Source of the DNA: Acidobacteriota bacterium
Lineage (GTDB): Bacteria; Acidobacteriota; UBA890; WLXD01
NCBI GenBank assembly: GCA_963666055.2
Contig: CAXWPH010000015.1
Location: 416,001-480,000 of the forward strand
Direction: 5' to 3'
DNA length: 64,000 nt
Shown: piece by piece, positions 11,671 to 18,521 of the stretch
Layout: the number at the start of each line of letters is the position of its first letter
How positions within the stretch are numbered: position 1 is the first letter of the stretch
Translations under genes and position numbers: made by a program
The notes under the pieces: model-generated
Databases searched by the model: none
The model's input: only the letters and a program-made list of their open reading frames with translations
Told to the model about the DNA's origin: nothing

Positions 11671-11825
11671 ACTTCCTCCAATGGTCTTGAAACACCATGA
11701 ATGTACCTTGATTCGCTGGCCCAGCGGATACCACTATGATCTTCGACGTCGATGGAAACCTGCCACCATTCGACGGGCCGATGGGCCCAGGCCAACTCCA
11801 CAAGGGGCGCATAACCGAGACTCAA

Positions 11826-13326
11826 ATGGCCGACCCACTCCAGCCCACAGCGGCAAGGGAAGCCACGACGCTCGATACCGAGTTCAAGCGGGGACTCGGT
11901 CTCTTCGATTCCACCATGATCGTCGTCGGCTCGATGATCGGCTCGGGCATCTTCCTCGTATCTCCCGATATGGCCCGGCTGCTGGGAAGCCCTGGCTGGC
12001 TCTTGGTCGCGTGGGCCATCGCCGGCGTCCTGACGGTCGCGGCGGCCCTCCTACGGAGAGCTCGCCGCCATGATGCCGCGGGCCGGTGGTCAGTATGTCT
12101 ACATCCGCGAAGCGTTCTCGCCGCTGCTCGCTTTCCTGTACGGGTGGACGCTCTTCCTGGTCATCCAGACCGGCCTGATCGCGGCGGTCGGAGTTGCGTT
12201 CGCTCGCTACTCCCAATGGCTCTGGCCCTGGATCTCAGAGGAACGCTACATCATCCCGCCACTCCACCTGTCCACACGATATGCGGTCTCTTTGTCGACC
12301 GCCCAGTTGGTTGGCATAGGCATGATCGCCTTCATCACCTGGACCAATACGCGTGGCCTCAAGTACGGAAAACTCGTCCAGAACGTATTCACCACCACCA
12401 AGACAGTTGCGCTGGTGGCGCTCATCTTCGTTGGTGTAACGCTCGGCTGGAGAGCTGGTGGCGGCGGGGTGAACTTCACCGACCTCTGGACGCCGCGTGG
12501 AGAGGTCTCCATCGTCCCCGGCTTGACGGCGGCGACGACCTACGGCCTGTTCATCGCGGTCTGCGTGGCGCAGGTCGGATCGCTGTTCGCCGCGGATGCC
12601 TGGAACAACATCACCTTCACCGCCGGCGAAGTGAAGAACCCGCGCCGCAACCTCCCCCTGTCGTTGGCCCTCGGCACCACCATCGTGATCGCCCTGTACA
12701 TCCTGACGAACGTTGCCTACCTGGCAACGCTCCCCATCGAGCAGATTCAGACCGCACCGTCGGACCGCGTGGCCACGGCGACCATCGAAGCCATTTTCCC
12801 CGGTTTGGGCGTCGTTTTGATGTCGATTGGCATCATGATCTCGACGTTTGGATGCAACAACGGGCACATACTGTCGGGGGCGCGAGCCTACTACGCTATG
12901 GCTCGCGATGGCCTGTTCTTCGCGGTGGCGGGCCGCCTCAATAAGCAGAAGGTGCCGGCGGCAGCCCTCGTGCTCCAGGGCCTCTGGGCAGCCACGCTCA
13001 TCCTGCCGAGAACTTTCGACCCAAATACCGGCACCTACGGCAACCTCTACAACAACCTGCTCGACTACATCGTCTCGGCCTCCCTGCTCTTCTACATCTT
13101 GACCATCGCTGGTCTATTTCGTCTCCGCCGCACCCGTCCCGACGCGGAGCGGCCGTACCGCGCCTTCGGCTACCCGATCGTGCCAATCGTCTACATGGCG
13201 GGCGCGGCCACCCTTGTGGTGGTTCTTTTCACCTACCGGACCTCCACGACGTGGCCGGGCCTGATCATCGTGCTCCTCGGCGTCCCGGTCTACTTCGTGT
13301 GGCGGCGCCGCCATGGTCGGGGCTAG
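11826..13326 (+). pseudogene. APC-family amino acid permease with frameshift near 12050
   Basis: The N-terminus (GLFDSTMIVVGSMIGSGIF…VAAAL) and the remainder (YGELAAMMPRAGGQYVY…) are in different frames. The sequence reads CTC CTAC where CTC TCC TAC is expected. Confidence 0.8.
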
Positions 13327-13597
13327 CAGACCGTGGTGAAAGTGTGGTGGGTCTGGCGACAGGGTCTTGCGAAGTGGAGGCAAGGAGAGAGGAGGAGGCG
13401 ATGGTTACCCCATCGTTGACGAGGAACGACGCAGCATGCGCGCGCAACCCCCTGTCGCCCGAAGGGTTACGGCGATTTGGGGCCATCTGCGGCGTTGGCC
13501 CTCCTGGACGATACAGCAAGCATCGCCTGCGTCGCGTCGCCTTGCATCTGGCCCCACGACGCCATAACCAGACCCACCAGAGTTTTTCAGCACCCTG
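13327..13597 (+). mobile_element. MITE copy 1 (271 bp, IS5/IS1182-like ends)
   Basis: Left end CAGACCGTGGTGAAAGTGTGGTGGGTCTGG and right end CCAGACCCACCAGAGTTTTTCAGCACCCTG, flanked by CTAG and TTAA. An inverted homologue lies at 17498-17768. Confidence 0.85.
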
Positions 13598-13699: not shown

Positions 13700-15151
13700 A
13701 TGAGACTCCGAGCTGTTGTCGTCCGTGTTGCCCTGCTGACCTTGATCGCTTCGCCGTCGCAGGCGCAGACCGTCGACCCCAGCCTGGCGCTCTTCTTCCA
13801 GGCCGCCTCTCCGGACCAGGGCACCTCCGAAGACGCGCTCGAGGAGATCGGCAAGCACTGGAAGAACGGCTACGCAGCGCTCCTGCTCGACTGGATGCGT
13901 TTCCTGCCGTCGAGCGAGCGTGGCGACAACGCCCCCGGGCTGGGTGCCCGTGGCCAGCAGGAGCCCGACGATCCCGAGTTCTCCAACAGCCACGACCCGC
14001 GCGTGCAGACGCGCGAGCGCATCCTGAAGTTCCTCGAGAGGCAGACCGGACAGAAGCACGGCGAAGATCTCGACGCATGGCGCCACTGGATGTGGGCCCA
14101 ACCGTACGACACCCATGCCCAGATCAGTACGTTCAAGGCCAACCTCTACGGCAGCGTCGACCAGGCGTTCCGTAAGTTCTTTCGAGGTACGTCGGCGGTG
14201 CGCATCGACGAGATCGATTGGGGCGGCGTGCGGGTAGCGGGCATCCCGGCGCTCGACCACCCGCCGTTGGTTTCGGCGGCCGAGGCTTCGTACCTGGACG
14301 ACGACGACATCGTGTTCGGGCTGTATATCAACGGCCATGCGCGCGCCTATCCCAAGCGCATCCTAGCCTGGCACGAGCTCGCGTGGGACACCGTCGGCGA
14401 CCTGGAGATCACGTTGGTGTACTGCACCCTCTGCGGCGTGGTGATCCCATACAAGAGCGAGGTGGGCGGACAGGTGGTCAAACTCGACACTTCCGGTCTG
14501 CTGTTCCGTTCCAACAAGCTCCTATTCGACGAGCCGTCATCAACGCTCTGGTCAAGCATCACCGGCGAACCGCTGGTTGGCAGCATGGTTGGGAGCGGCG
14601 TGCGCCTCAGCCCCCTGCCGGTGGTGACCACAACCTGGCGTGACTGGCGCGCATCGAATCCGCATACGACCGTGCTGTCAGTGGACACCGGCTTCGAGCG
14701 GGATTACGGCGAGGGCGTGGCCTACGCGGACTACTTCGCCACCGACGAGTTGATGTTCGAGGTATCAAATCGAGACTCGCGGCTCAAGAACAAGGACGAG
14801 GTGCTGGCGGTGCGCTTCCCCGGTGGTGACGGCAATCAGGCGCTGGCGATCTCGACCGATTTTCTGCGACGCAACCGATTGTTCCATACCAGTTTTGCCG
14901 GGCGCGACCTGCTGGTAGTCACCAGCGAGGACGGCGCCAACCGGCTCTACGCTTCGCCGGCCGTGAAGCTCGTGCGCTTCCTCGACGGCAACCGCATTGA
15001 GGACGAGCAGGGCAACTTGTGGGAAGCGCGCGAAGATCGGCTGGTGCCCTTGGCCACTCCCGCGGAGGCGCTGCCGCGCCTGAATGCCTTTCGGGCCTTC
15101 TGGTTCGGGTGGTATGCGCAATACCCGGAAACGGAGTTGATCGCGAGCTAG
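13700..15151 (+). CDS. Secreted DUF3179-family protein (CxxC)
   Basis: A signal peptide, then motifs GGV…GIPALD.P, ARAYP.RIL.WHE, YCTLCG, SGLL..SN.L, TLWS.ITG, TTW.DW…P.T.VL and FWFGWY..YPET. Confidence 0.85.
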   Translation: MRLRAVVVRVALLTLIASPSQAQTVDPSLALFFQAASPDQGTSEDALEEIGKHWKNGYAALLLDWMRFLPSSERGDNAPGLGARGQQEPDDPEFSNSHDPRVQTRERILKFLERQTGQKHGEDLDAWRHWMWAQPYDTHAQISTFKANLYGSVDQAFRKFFRGTSAVRIDEIDWGGVRVAGIPALDHPPLVSAAEASYLDDDDIVFGLYINGHARAYPKRILAWHELAWDTVGDLEITLVYCTLCGVVIPYKSEVGGQVVKLDTSGLLFRSNKLLFDEPSSTLWSSITGEPLVGSMVGSGVRLSPLPVVTTTWRDWRASNPHTTVLSVDTGFERDYGEGVAYADYFATDELMFEVSNRDSRLKNKDEVLAVRFPGGDGNQALAISTDFLRRNRLFHTSFAGRDLLVVTSEDGANRLYASPAVKLVRFLDGNRIEDEQGNLWEAREDRLVPLATPAEALPRLNAFRAFWFGWYAQYPETELIAS

Positions 15152-15330
15152 TGCCCTTCCGTCTCGCCATCGACCACTCCACTCTTCGGTACCTTTGGTC
15201 GTCGGTCGAAACGCCGACTCAGCCGCCGCCTGAACGTTCCGATACGCAAGTCAGAGGCTATCCCTTGCTTGCAGCAGGGCCGCATGACTACAGTCCGTTC
15301 TGGGGTCGTTTCGAGTGGAGGTACCGTTCG

Positions 15331-16554
15331 ATGGCCGTGCGCCAAGTGCGGGGTCGACATCGCCGCAAGATCCTGTTCGCGAGCATGATGCCGGGAGTGA
15401 TCATCGGTGTCCCGCTGGCGATGTTGCTGGTTTCCGAGCTCCAATCACTGGGTCGCTTGGAGCAGGCATCGAGACAGGTGCTGACGCAGACCGGCGTGCG
15501 CGTCGCCGACGAGCTGGCGAGGGCGATTCGACGAGATCTCACGACCATGTATAGCGAGGTTCTGGACGCGATTCCACGCGTCGCCTTGCGTCGAGGGGAC
15601 CTGGAGAAGATCCGCTCTCTCGTGGACACAATCCGCGATCCCGTCGCGCTGGGTACCTTCTTCGTGGGTATGGCGTCGGCGAAAGCGGAAGCGTCCGGTG
15701 AAGCGACCCCCTACTCGGTTCTGTTCGCCGGGCCGGAGCCGTTCGATGGGCCCGAGAATCCTCGGCTTGGTGCGCCGACCGCGTTCGGCAGGCCTGCTGC
15801 CATCCAACCACCCGCTGCACCGAGCCGCCTGGGGTTCCACACCGACCCGGAGCTCGCCAAGGCCGTGGCCGCGCGCATCGAGCACATCGAGGCGACCGGG
15901 ATCTCGGAGGGTTGCGGCTTCGTTTCAGTCAGAGGCCAGGATCACCTTGTCGTCGTACGCCTGGTGTATTCGGATCCGACGCGCACCCGAGTCGATCGGT
16001 TCGTCGGATTCGCCGTCCCCGTCAAACAGCTTGCCTCACAGTACTTGCCCAGCCTGGCGGCCCAGATTCGCGGATCGGAAGCCCTCTTCTCAACCGACCA
16101 ACCACTGGAGGTCTCGATCTTCGACGCGAGCGGCACCGAGACCTATCGAACCGGCCCGTCGTTGGTCGGCAGCTACGTCCATCAGGCAGCGTTTCCAATG
16201 TTGCTGCTCGGCGACGACCACCTGCTAGCCAACCCCGACGACCACCAGCCCGTGCCTGTCTGGGTCGTTCGCACTGGCTATCCGGGGACCGATCCGGCGG
16301 AGCTAGCAAGGAGCAGCACTAATCAGCAACGTCAGGTGCTGTTTCTGGTGACCGTGGTCGCCGCGGTCGGCGTCGTCCTGTCGGGGCGCGCCGTCGCCCG
16401 CGAGCTCGGCGTCGCCGAACTCAAGAAGGAGTTCGTGTCCAGCGTCTCGCACGACCTGAAGACGCCGCTGGCGTCGATCCAGGTTCTTGCCGACACCCCA
16501 GCTCTCGCAGCAACTCGGTGTCCTGGGGAGTTTGATCAAGGCCTTTCTGGATGA
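15331..16554 (+). pseudogene. Membrane sensor histidine kinase truncated after the H-box
   Basis: GGAGG RBS, two TM helices and the H-box EFVSSVSHDLKTPLASIQ. Homology ends at ~16497 and there is no HATPase domain. Confidence 0.8.
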
Positions 16555-16577
16555 GCGCCCTGGCAGCGGCGGCATGT

Positions 16578-16965
16578 CGATGACGGCGGCATCGTGACGC
16601 TGCTCGACCCGGACAGCGGCGAGGTGCTCCACCGCGGCCGTCTCTACGATGCGGTCGAGAGCTACTTCGCCTCGCCGGTCGCCGGCGACGGCAAAATCTT
16701 CATGGTCAGCGAGGCATGCAAGGTGGCGGTGCTGAGGCCAGGCCCCACCCTCGACATCCTCGCAGTCAACGACCTCGACGACATCTGTTTCGCAACCCCG
16801 GCTATCGACGAGAATCACATCTACGTGCGCACCCGCAGCGCGCTGCACGCGTTCGCCGTGCCCGCGCCGGCGGGGCCGGCGGGGTCGAGTCAACAGCTGT
16901 CGGGTGCGGCGACAGCGATCGGCGGCAGGATCAGCAGACGAACATGGCCACAAGCGCTGCGATAA
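16578..16965 (+). pseudogene. C-terminal fragment of a PQQ-like (BamB-type) β-propeller protein
   Basis: DDGGIVTLLD..SGEV…GRL…YFASPVAGDGKIF..SE…ILAVNDL…FATPAI….IYVRT..LHAF, with no N-terminus. Confidence 0.7.
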
Positions 16966-17100
16966 TCGACTCGCCGGCGCCGCGTGGGCACCGCCTGAGG
17001 AAAGGGTCGGCGCCCACATGATCGGCAGCAGACTTCGATGCAATGAACGGCGAACTCTAACCGTTCGATACCATCTCGCCGCAGTCGCGCAGCCGATGAC

Positions 17101-17463
17101 TCAGAAGTTCATGAGCTTGTCGCTCTCTGCCGCAAGCTCAGCGTAGCGCTTCGGATCGATGAACTCGGCGTTCTTTCCCTCAAGATCGGCCTCGAAGACC
17201 TCACGGGCCTTCGCGCAACCCCCTCAGACGTAGATCGGCACACCGTTATCGACGGCAAACTGGAATAGCTCCTTGAGCGGCGGCATGCCGACGCCAACGA
17301 GGCTCTCCCGCAGCCCGTCCTTGAGGATCACCGGACTGTCAACGGCCAACACGATACCGACATCGTGCCCGGCTTCTTTGGCCCCTTTGGCGATGTGGAA
17401 GGGCAAGCTTGCACGGGTAGGATCATCGGCCCCGTGAGTACCCGTGATCAGGAATTTTGCCAT
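17101..17463 (-). CDS. DsrE-family selenoprotein (120 aa; UGA=Sec at 17224-17226)
   Basis: A DsrE-like N-terminus (THGADDPTRASLPF..A.GA.EAGH) reads through TGA as PIYV-U-GGCAKARE…GKNAEFIDP.RY.EL..ESDKLMNF*. Confidence 0.85.
17193..17213 (-). promoter_or_regulatory. Putative bacterial SECIS hairpin
   Basis: CGAAGGCC-CGUGA-GGUCUUCG forms an 8-bp stem with G at loop position 2. There are 18 nt between the UGA and the loop. Confidence 0.65.
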
Positions 17464-17497
17464 CGGACACCTCCCCTCTTCTGCCCCTACGTACTAA

Positions 17498-17768
17498 CAG
17501 GCCGTGGTGAAAGTGTGGTGGGTCTGGTTACGGCGAGTTGGGGCCAGATGCAAGGCGGCCTGACGCAGGCGATGCCCTAGCCATCGTCGAGGAAGGCCAA
17601 CACCGTAAATGGCCCCAAATCGCCGTAACCCTTCGGGCGACAGGGGGTTGCGCGCGTAGGCTGCGTCGTTCCTCGTCAACGATGCGGTAACCATCGCCTC
17701 CTCCTCTCTCCTTGCCTCCGCCCCGCAAGACCCTGTCGCCAGACCCACCACACTTTCACCACGGCCTG
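17498..17768 (-). mobile_element. MITE copy 2 (271 bp), perfect 30-bp terminal inverted repeats
   Basis: CAGGCCGTGGTGAAAGTGTGGTGGGTCTGG…CCAGACCCACCACACTTTCACCACGGCCTG, flanked by CTAA and CTAG. The interior is the reverse complement of copy 1. Confidence 0.9.
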
Positions 17769-17868
17769 CTAGGGCGACACCTCAAGCTTGACTCCTGGCC
17801 GCTACCCCCGGCGAAATCGAGGACCTCATGCGGGTCGACTTCGTTGCGCAGTTGAGGGGAATCGGGTG

Positions 17869-18183
17869 CTAGTGCAGCGTGGTGCTCATGGCGTACCACC
17901 CCTCCTGGAACTCGCCGCACAGCGTCGCCACCAGCGGGTGGCTGATCGGCTGACCGCCGTCGTCCGGCTCGAGGTTTCGCTCGGCCACGTAGGTCGTGTG
18001 GTCAGCCCCGTCGACGAGCACGTGATACCACGGGCTGTCTTTCGGCGGGCAAGACCGCGCCACCATCTCGTACCACTCGTCGGCGCCTTGAAAGGTGGCG
18101 TCGACGTCGAAGATGACGCCACGGTAGTCGAACTTCGTGTGATGGACGATCTGGCCGACGAAGAACCTGGCGGTGTGCTCCAT
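17869..18183 (-). CDS. hspQ: Heat shock protein HspQ / YccV-like
   Basis: F.VGQIVHH..FDYRGVIFDVD…PWYHVLVD…TYVAERNL..D…I.HP. Confidence 0.85.
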   Translation of the reverse strand: MEHTARFFVGQIVHHTKFDYRGVIFDVDATFQGADEWYEMVARSCPPKDSPWYHVLVDGADHTTYVAERNLEPDDGGQPISHPLVATLCGEFQEGWYAMSTTLH

Positions 18184-18521
18184 GACGCCGGTCACGTTAT
18201 CACCGCACGCCCCGTGCCGTCCTGAGTTTTCCTGAGTCGGTTGTTCATGTGGTCCTCTCCTGTTTTCTGTACTTCCTCAGCGAAACTCCCACGCCTTCCG
18301 CTTCGCCGGCTCGACAGGGTCCGAAGCGGGATTCTCCCGGTCTCATATTCGGTGACCACCAGGGTCTGTTGTTGTCGCGGTATACATTACCGTCCATTCC
18401 TGCGCCGTCACGTTGCCGCTGTCGGTTTGCCGACGCCAGAGTGGTGCTGGTGGCGCCGGGGACAACCCCGTTGCGCGTCGACCGACAACCCCGTCGGCGC
18501 CACCGCTCAAGGGAGACCACC

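Follow-up and report, generated by a model that had tools for sequence, protein, structure and literature searches.

The stretch of DNA analysed here (the window) comprises 64,000 nucleotides of contig CAXWPH010000015.1 from an Acidobacteriota bacterium and carries, on its reverse strand, a gene for a DsrE-family protein with an in-frame TGA at codon 80 (Table 1). From the ATG at 17463 the ORF caller (table 11) yields a 79-aa product ending at TGA 17226-17224. As the first-pass annotation had noticed, the frame stays open beyond this codon, for exactly 40 further codons (GGCAKAREV...KLMNF) that place the codon in the context PIYV-U-GGC and complete the Pfam match. The ORF cut at TGA matches DsrE (PF02635) with E 7.5e-6 over profile positions 2-76 of 116, and the read-through protein matches the full domain (positions 2-116 of 116) with E 5.7e-16 and 59.2 bits against a gathering score of 22.7. 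U80-G-G-C83 is the sole thiol/selenol pair of a protein without further Cys. Contigs from four public runs (up to four studies) all cover codon 17224-17226 with no listed change, and the TGA is therefore not an assembly error. No NCBIfam family matched the protein at E<=0.01, and a scan of the window for hidden selenoproteins returned three candidates, of which one is this gene and the other two (16552, plus strand, and 14767, minus strand) are weak and lack a motif.

Table 1 Features of the window, of related loci and of the host genome.
Feature	Position	Strand	Remarks
DsrE-family selenoprotein gene, full	17101..17463	-	predicted 120 aa; UxxC = U80/C83; TGA stop 17103-17101
In-frame TGA, codon 80, inferred Sec	17224..17226	-	opposite first Cys of Cys-X7-Cys in DsrE3A (PDB 3MC3)
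Cys83 codon (TGC), predicted resolving Cys	17215..17217	-	TGA at this codon (UxxU) in 11/128 TGA-bearing relatives
Putative bSECIS upper stem-loop	17193..17213	-	8 bp (17213-17206 with 17200-17193); loop CGUGA 17205-17201
Shine-Dalgarno-like GGAGGT	17469..17474	-	5 nt before ATG 17463; similar in near-identical relatives L037/L038
MITE, 271 bp, terminal inverted repeats	17498..17768	.	CTAG site 34 nt upstream of ATG; left flank CTAA
hspQ (YccV-like) gene, upstream	17869..18195	-	3' half co-duplicated with dsrE on C14
DUF3179 gene, Cys form (YCTLC)	13700..15151	+	nothing tying it to the DsrE gene
Host Sec methyltransferase gene	C15:403828-404619 (L171:7826-8620)	-	predicted 264 aa; WTG-U-IAG; no Cys; 8-bp SECIS-like hairpin
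UxxU loci			L084, L094, L096, L098, L101, L103, L104, L105, L113, L129, L131
Ten further candidate host selenoprotein genes	C15:816092, 747740, 548067, 964675; C6:385813; C5:39864; C12:215962; C14:571245; C3:78592; C5:31936		

The gene had been described as standing alone next to a MITE, with a Cys-form DUF3179 gene about 2 kb away, and both neighbours are present as described. DUF3179 was considered as a partner of DsrE and rejected; as it is a Cys form and is missing from the annotated neighbour clusters of relatives, it is best regarded as a bystander. The solitary position holds at the window locus, and not with respect to the family, in which a Sec methyltransferase is the commonest neighbour, or to a second copy of the gene on contig C14. 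This copy (C14:289300-290063, L024) differs by one synonymous base, and the two are the only PF02635 matches in the host genome. On C14 the MITE site is empty, and a glucose/sorbosone dehydrogenase (GSDH) gene is fused in frame with the 3' half of hspQ. The MITE occurs in 81 full-length copies in the genome with a CTAG target duplication; it is a bystander that may affect expression of the DsrE gene. A copy of the same family also lies at about 13320-13590 of the window, and no element of 0.4-3 kb with MITE ends, a possible autonomous partner, was among the matches listed by the scan. Two other genes of the window appear to be broken. Within 15019-16965 a sensor histidine kinase stops just after the HisKA start and is followed by a short fragment resembling the end of a PQQ-type propeller protein, without a Pfam match, and at 11736-13326 the beginning of an amino-acid permease seems to be in a different frame from the rest.

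Near-identical genes (96%) on three metagenome contigs have another upstream region, with TATAAT in two of them, and a downstream flank that matches the C14 copy. As the upstream region of these relatives is replaced in the window and no sigma-70-like promoter was found at 16800-18400, expression in the host is uncertain. Contigs from a metatranscriptome run span the TGA in a relative of about 96% identity, although such contigs do not show transcription, and three RNA runs plus one possible run with the host species label contained almost no words of the gene, a result that does not prove absence. None of 25 other genomes of the class, four of them from the same genus and 92-96% complete, contained the DsrE selenoprotein in a profile search, and a TGA-bearing relative of 41% identity occurs in one genome of the same phylum. 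The simplest reading of this distribution would be a recent gain of the gene and its duplication.

Homologues were compared at 131 loci, made up of the best 80 of 315 confirmed metagenome matches and the 51 of 54 genome loci that reach codon 80. The codon is TGA in all of these 80 metagenome loci and in 48 of the 51 genome loci, the others being two with Cys (L165/L166) and one that is frameshifted; TAA or TAG was never seen. Of the 128 loci with TGA, 115 reach a stop after another 40-41 codons; in 10 the contig ends first, and 3 deviate. Sequence conservation does not drop at the UGA, as the mean majority-residue fraction is 0.65 before and 0.66 after it (50 genes, <90% nucleotide identity), and variation in the 40 downstream codons falls mostly on third positions. 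The database entries look very different: among 119 homologues, 114 end just before the site, two are 120 aa long with Arg in its place, and three are fragments or chimeras. A more distant set was drawn from the 50%-identity representatives (151 proteins in 153 aligned rows). Of these rows 49 end at the site, and in the 82 that show a residue there it is Cys in 45, Ser in 22 and something else in 15, mostly Arg, Gly, Trp or Leu, whose codons can differ from TGA by a single base. Some full-length relatives (P0003, P0004 and others) have one of these four residues or Ser ahead of xxC, likewise a single base off TGA, and could be either mutants of a Sec codon or read errors, whereas a separate SxxS group of 19 has lost both thiols. 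The first-pass annotation had predicted Cys opposite the UGA in homologues and conservation beyond it, and the alignments bear this out, with downstream conservation equal to that upstream. The second motif position is C or U in 127 of the 128 TGA-bearing loci. A search for fusions among longer proteins gave one match in 210 candidates, which is apparently chimeric and thus weak evidence, and one Usp-DsrE fusion of the Cys form was present among the representatives.

An 8-bp hairpin with a G-containing loop, pointed out earlier 3' of the UGA, is present in the predicted RNA fold. Its loop lies 18 nt after the UGA with the G (17204) at loop position 2, and a weaker lower stem reaching 17222/17182 is predicted as well. 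In our own script, which is not bSECISearch, the element (loop CGUGA, 8 bp, 18 nt, -17.7 kcal/mol) falls within the bSECIS constraints. The consensus outlined in PMC13188914 has a loop of 3-9 nt with G in its first two positions, a stem of 4-16 bp, a distance of 16-37 nt from the UGA and an energy <= -7.5 kcal/mol. This simple filter is weak alone, since it also passes 2-38% of control windows that lack this hairpin; on minimum-energy folds, 40 of 58 distinct homologue windows pass. Hairpin energy was dropped as evidence, as stability was not above that of shuffled sequence (z -0.66 to +1.18), and an Rfam search of 16900-17900 gave two chance matches but none to a SECIS model. The support for the hairpin as a putative bSECIS element is comparative, coming from codon constraint and covariation. 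At codons +6 to +9 (Ala-Arg-Gly-Val) one synonymous codon accounts for 86-94% of cases in 50 non-redundant genes, compared with 30-65% (mean 48%) for the top synonymous codon at 31 comparable codons elsewhere in the same genes. A 6-bp core is paired in 94.6% of cells with 12 double-sided changes, counts that are inflated by kinship, and none of 500 shuffles was as high, while slid windows gave 26-63%. The loop G is invariant in all 50 genes. Relatives do not share the three outermost of the eight pairs (pair 16-32 forms in 15 of 49), so that only a core of 5-6 bp is general, and the 5-nt loop of the window gene arises from a Gly-to-Glu change that opens the innermost C-G pair.

The host genome (5.73 Mb, 95.7% complete) encodes SelA (E 5e-135), SelB and SelD, all above curated cut-offs, together with two tRNA-Sec (selC) genes with anticodon UCA (C6:7932-8029 and C13:66090-66187). 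The earlier suggestion that the organism decodes Sec is thereby supported. Across the family, selB is above cut-off in 41 of the 48 genomes with Sec-DsrE, which are metagenome-assembled with completeness not given, and in both genomes with the Cys form, compared with 2 of 14 control genomes.

An AlphaFold2 model built on a 34-row alignment with Sec entered as Cys has a pLDDT of 97.6 and places residue 80 at the end of a strand (E77-80) leading into a helix (81-86). The top Foldseek matches all have the DsrE fold: 3MC3 (TM 0.83), YchN, Swol_2425, DsrEFH, TusBCD and 2QS7. U80 aligns with the first Cys of 3MC3, which is named as the active-site Cys in PMC4175335, in agreement with the proposal that the UGA occupies the position of the DsrE catalytic Cys. 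In the model, the protein thus has a DsrE fold in which a selenol is predicted to take the place of the active-site Cys. Among solved structures the best match is DsrE3A of Sulfolobales (SSO1125, 3MC3; Mcup_0681; E 7e-6). In Metallosphaera, the active-site Cys of DsrE3A, a trimer, is described as forming a Cys-S-thiosulfonate that is passed to TusA (PMC4175335). Identity to DsrE3A is however only 27%, the window protein has U-X2-C where DsrE3A has Cys-X7-Cys and does not belong to the DsrE3A type by this motif, and DsrE3A genes sit with tusA and hdr-like genes in sulfur oxidisers. The fold is also that of DsrE/TusD of DsrEFH (2HY5) and TusBCD (2D1P) and of E. coli YchN (1JX7), but unlike in DsrEFH and TusBCD there is no DsrF/H or TusB/C partner among the PF02635 matches of the host. 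TusD models gave a weak score, on one Cys relative only.

A closer counterpart exists among published selenoproteins. Sec variants of DsrE, which the first-pass annotation took as known, are documented in several surveys: DsrE-like UxxC selenoproteins were found in Sargasso Sea data in 2005 (PMC1088965), DsrE 1 and DsrE 2 selenoproteins in the GOS survey (PMC2398784), a DsrE-like selenoprotein in Desulfovibrio vulgaris (PMC1794560), and WP_014524487.1 is the catalogue example (PMC13188914). Like these, the window protein combines PF02635, UxxC, one predicted Sec and a putative bSECIS directly 3' of the UGA, and it is placed with them by motif and Pfam family from the published descriptions. 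Judged from its sequence, the window gene is therefore an additional member of a selenoprotein family described since 2005. DsrE selenoproteins are still called uncharacterised in a 2026 review (PMC13188914), the main text of BSepDB (PMC13326102) gave no match for Dsr, and the Cys-only DsrE of the SAO system (bioRxiv 10.1101/2022.07.06.499078) is a different case. The published papers contain 1-19 DsrE selenoprotein sequences each, compared with the clade in 48 genomes found here, chiefly from Acidobacteriota, Chloroflexota, Methylomirabilota/Rokubacteria and Actinomycetota. As this widespread clade is nearly always truncated in the database and has no NCBIfam match, DsrE selenoproteins are undercounted.

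Some relatives appear to carry a second Sec. TGA is also found at codon 83, giving UxxU, in 9 of the 80 metagenome loci (the best 80 of 315) and in 2 of the 48 genome loci, both from Methylomirabilota, and these loci keep the conserved tail and the same hairpin. After de-duplication seven UxxU rows remain in a quick tree (93 rows, 120 columns, many open forks, used only for the scatter of labels), six of them grouped with good support and the seventh placed separately on a long branch; the main UxxU branch includes Methylomirabilota. The catalogue lists DsrE-like proteins as UxxC with one Sec (PMC13188914), and no UxxU DsrE was reported in the literature searched, which included few subscription papers. 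Four UxxU loci lie near a DUF5676 gene.

The most common neighbour of dsrE among relatives is an ArsM-like, SAM-dependent methyltransferase gene, found within about 1.3 kb at 33 of the 131 loci, upstream, downstream or divergent; a 34th match (31%) is unrelated. As the 131 loci are redundant and many are short, this count is better read together with the 18 of 61 loci that have both flanks long enough and contain the methyltransferase. After removal of near-duplicates it lies beside dsrE in 21 of 93 rows, scattered over the quick tree, and the pairing is seen in 9 of the 48 genome loci; these nine come from Acidobacteriota, Chloroflexota, Pseudomonadota and Actinomycetota. The reading frame of 31 of the 33 methyltransferase ORFs ends in W(T/S)G-TGA-IAGAL and continues for 55-80 codons, whereas two do not reach this point or are shifted. 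In alignment with the algal ArsM (CmArsM), this TGA falls on Cys224. The nearest known kind is the Sec arsenite methyltransferase family (NF008823, UxxG; NF041536, NF041537, NF047649; UxxG forms catalogued in PMC13188914), which the partner resembles in reading W(T/S)G-U-IAG at the Cys224 position, followed by a hairpin of its own. Unlike that family, the partner lacks equivalents of Cys72 (T/V/I in 37 of 37 readable sequences) and Cys174 (G in 38 of 38) among 40 copies, and its ORFs cut at TGA score below the cut-offs. ArsM enzymes are said to have at least three of the four Cys equivalent to CmArsM 44, 72, 174 and 224 (PMC5552862); with no Cys at the 72 and 174 positions, and position 224 present only as Sec, the partner falls outside this rule.

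The host genome has its own Sec methyltransferase gene, 28.5 kb from the DsrE gene and outside the window, and a copy of the 271-bp MITE lies just downstream of it. The methyltransferase with TGA occurs in 14 of the 25 class relatives, all of them without this DsrE. At E<=1e-60 it was found in 15 genomes out of the 48 with Sec-DsrE, and a partial copy in one more; in 9 of these 16 it is adjacent to dsrE. Such a distribution counts against an obligate pair, and no DsrE-methyltransferase pair was reported in the literature searched, which included few subscription papers. Other recurring neighbours point to sulfur. Metallo-beta-lactamase/rhodanese genes occur near dsrE at 17 of the 131 loci, and presumably encode persulfide dioxygenases, with a weak match to NF040641. 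YeeE/YedE genes, presumably encoding transporters of sulfur compounds as their Pfam name suggests, are found at four loci, as are globin genes. MddA (methanethiol S-methyltransferase) is encoded, above cut-off, beside dsrE at seven loci, and mddA replaces the Sec methyltransferase gene as neighbour in one branch (L040, L041, L042, L046, L051, L053, L119). MddA is described as a methyltransferase of H2S and methanethiol (PMC12904073). Further neighbours encode MFS transporters and LysR, MerR and apparent ArsR-rhodanese regulators, and other likely selenoprotein genes lie beside a few relatives, a split AhpC (L118) and a GrdB-like gene (L139/L140).

Based on these comparisons, codon 80 is almost certainly decoded as Sec, and the 79-aa 'fragment' is very likely a 120-aa DsrE-family selenoprotein in reality. 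SelB with Sec-tRNA would bind the G of the CGUGA loop and insert Sec at the UGA. It is extremely improbable that the TGA is a true stop, of a 79-aa protein or a pseudogene, or a sequencing error. Nearly all database homologues are annotated as ending there and the hairpin alone is unremarkable, but the codon is always TGA among the stops, is kept in four runs and is followed by 40 codons that are as conserved as those upstream and vary mostly at third positions; a stop at residue 79 would, in the model, cost the fold two strands and several helices. As to function, the fold, the position of Sec and the neighbours of relatives favour a carrier of sulfane sulfur, and the whole account, decoding included, in which the Sec80 protein acts as a selenium-based carrier of reactive (sulfane) sulfur, is in our judgement probable, if far from certain. 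Sec80, in place of the DsrE active-site Cys, would attack a persulfide, polysulfide or polythionate (possibly a selenium analogue) to form a Sec-S adduct. A rhodanese/persulfide dioxygenase or a methyltransferase, for instance, could then accept the adduct, with Cys83 releasing or resolving it. By analogy with 3MC3 a homotrimer would be expected. Such a protein likely serves in the handling or detoxification of sulfide and sulfane sulfur; the sulfur-handling genes in question were found at the loci of relatives and not at the window locus.

Characterised DsrE carriers have either a single Cys or Cys-X7-Cys at this site; the UxxC spacing is different and would fit a redox enzyme just as well. 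Alternatively, then, the selenoprotein could be a thiol-disulfide oxidoreductase or peroxidase, whose UxxC cycles between selenenylsulfide and reduced states and reduces peroxides or proteins, for example the Sec of the methyltransferase. The location of UxxC at a strand end and helix start (E77-80, H81-86), and the near-constant C or U at the second position favour this reading, the UxxU variants suggest a redox pair, DsrE-like UxxC proteins were placed among thiol-dependent redox selenoproteins (PMC1088965), and many homologues are named 'predicted peroxiredoxin' by JGI. The fold is nevertheless that of DsrE and not thioredoxin-like, the characterised DsrE proteins described in PMC4175335 are sulfur carriers, and sulfur-handling genes recur as neighbours, so that we consider a redox enzyme unlikely, though a serious contender. 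It seems improbable that the selenoprotein binds or carries a metalloid or heavy metal (As, Hg) and supplies the thiol/selenol missing in the ArsM-like methyltransferase. Although the best NCBIfam matches of the partner, all below cut-offs, are arsenite-methyltransferase selenoprotein models, its Sec aligns with CmArsM Cys224, MerR-type regulators lie beside a few loci, and several bacterial selenoproteins are tied to As and Hg resistance (PMC13188914), the partner lacks the Cys72 and Cys174 equivalents and falls outside the three-of-four-Cys rule, and the host copy is devoid of Cys. A Pfam scan of 128 neighbour proteins named neither an arsenate reductase nor an arsenite exporter family, and the methyltransferase exists without this DsrE in the class relatives noted above. 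Perhaps, finally, the host copies are recently acquired, unexpressed passengers and the neighbour pattern reflects only a clustering of selenoprotein genes, as the split AhpC and GrdB-like genes beside relatives would also allow. The absence of the gene from the 25 class relatives, the near-identity of two copies with rearranged flanks, the MITE 34 nt upstream of one and the lack of a promoter-like site fit such a history. We give it very little credence, as both copies retain an intact frame, ribosome-binding site, UGA and hairpin, the host has no other DsrE gene, and the methyltransferase linkage recurs in separate branches of the quick tree, in at least four phyla and in different gene orders.

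If the sulfane-sulfur carrier is the correct reading, a wider scheme can tentatively be drawn, which we hold to be rather unlikely as a whole: Sec-DsrE may be the carrier half of an undescribed pathway of two selenoproteins that methylates sulfur or selenium rather than arsenic. Sec-DsrE would load sulfane sulfur or selenium and give it to the ArsM-like methyltransferase with its single Sec, MddA being the recipient in one branch. Bacteria of soil, sediment and sea would in this way form methanethiol/dimethyl sulfide or methylselenides. The site would have turned into a two-Sec UxxU (diselenide) centre in Methylomirabilota. For databases, the immediate consequence is a corrected annotation, very likely from a 79-aa ORF to a 120-aa selenoprotein. 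For specialists the gene itself is ordinary, and the testable lead lies in the unannotated clade, the UxxU form and the methyltransferase linkage. The recurring neighbours (Sec methyltransferase, persulfide-dioxygenase-like/rhodanese, YeeE/YedE and MddA) offer a concrete functional assay, and with the UxxU form a comparison of Cys, one-Sec and two-Sec variants on a single small scaffold would become possible.

Beyond the window, one in-frame TGA each was found in 8 of 17 AhpC-TSA matches and in a formate-dehydrogenase-like gene of the host. These eight AhpC-TSA-family genes, the formate-dehydrogenase-like gene and a rhodanese-like candidate are likely hidden selenoprotein genes (Table 1), and the host looks selenoprotein-rich. 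An ARAGORN call of tRNA-Pyl (CUA) at C5:65608-65685 is probably false, as no PylS match was above cut-off. Besides the two tRNA-Sec contigs, a Lys-Glu-Thr tRNA cluster is likewise doubled (C7, C10), so that duplication or strain mixing is possible. In a rough scan, similar hairpin loops of the form CG(U/G)GN were seen after several of the candidate UGAs.
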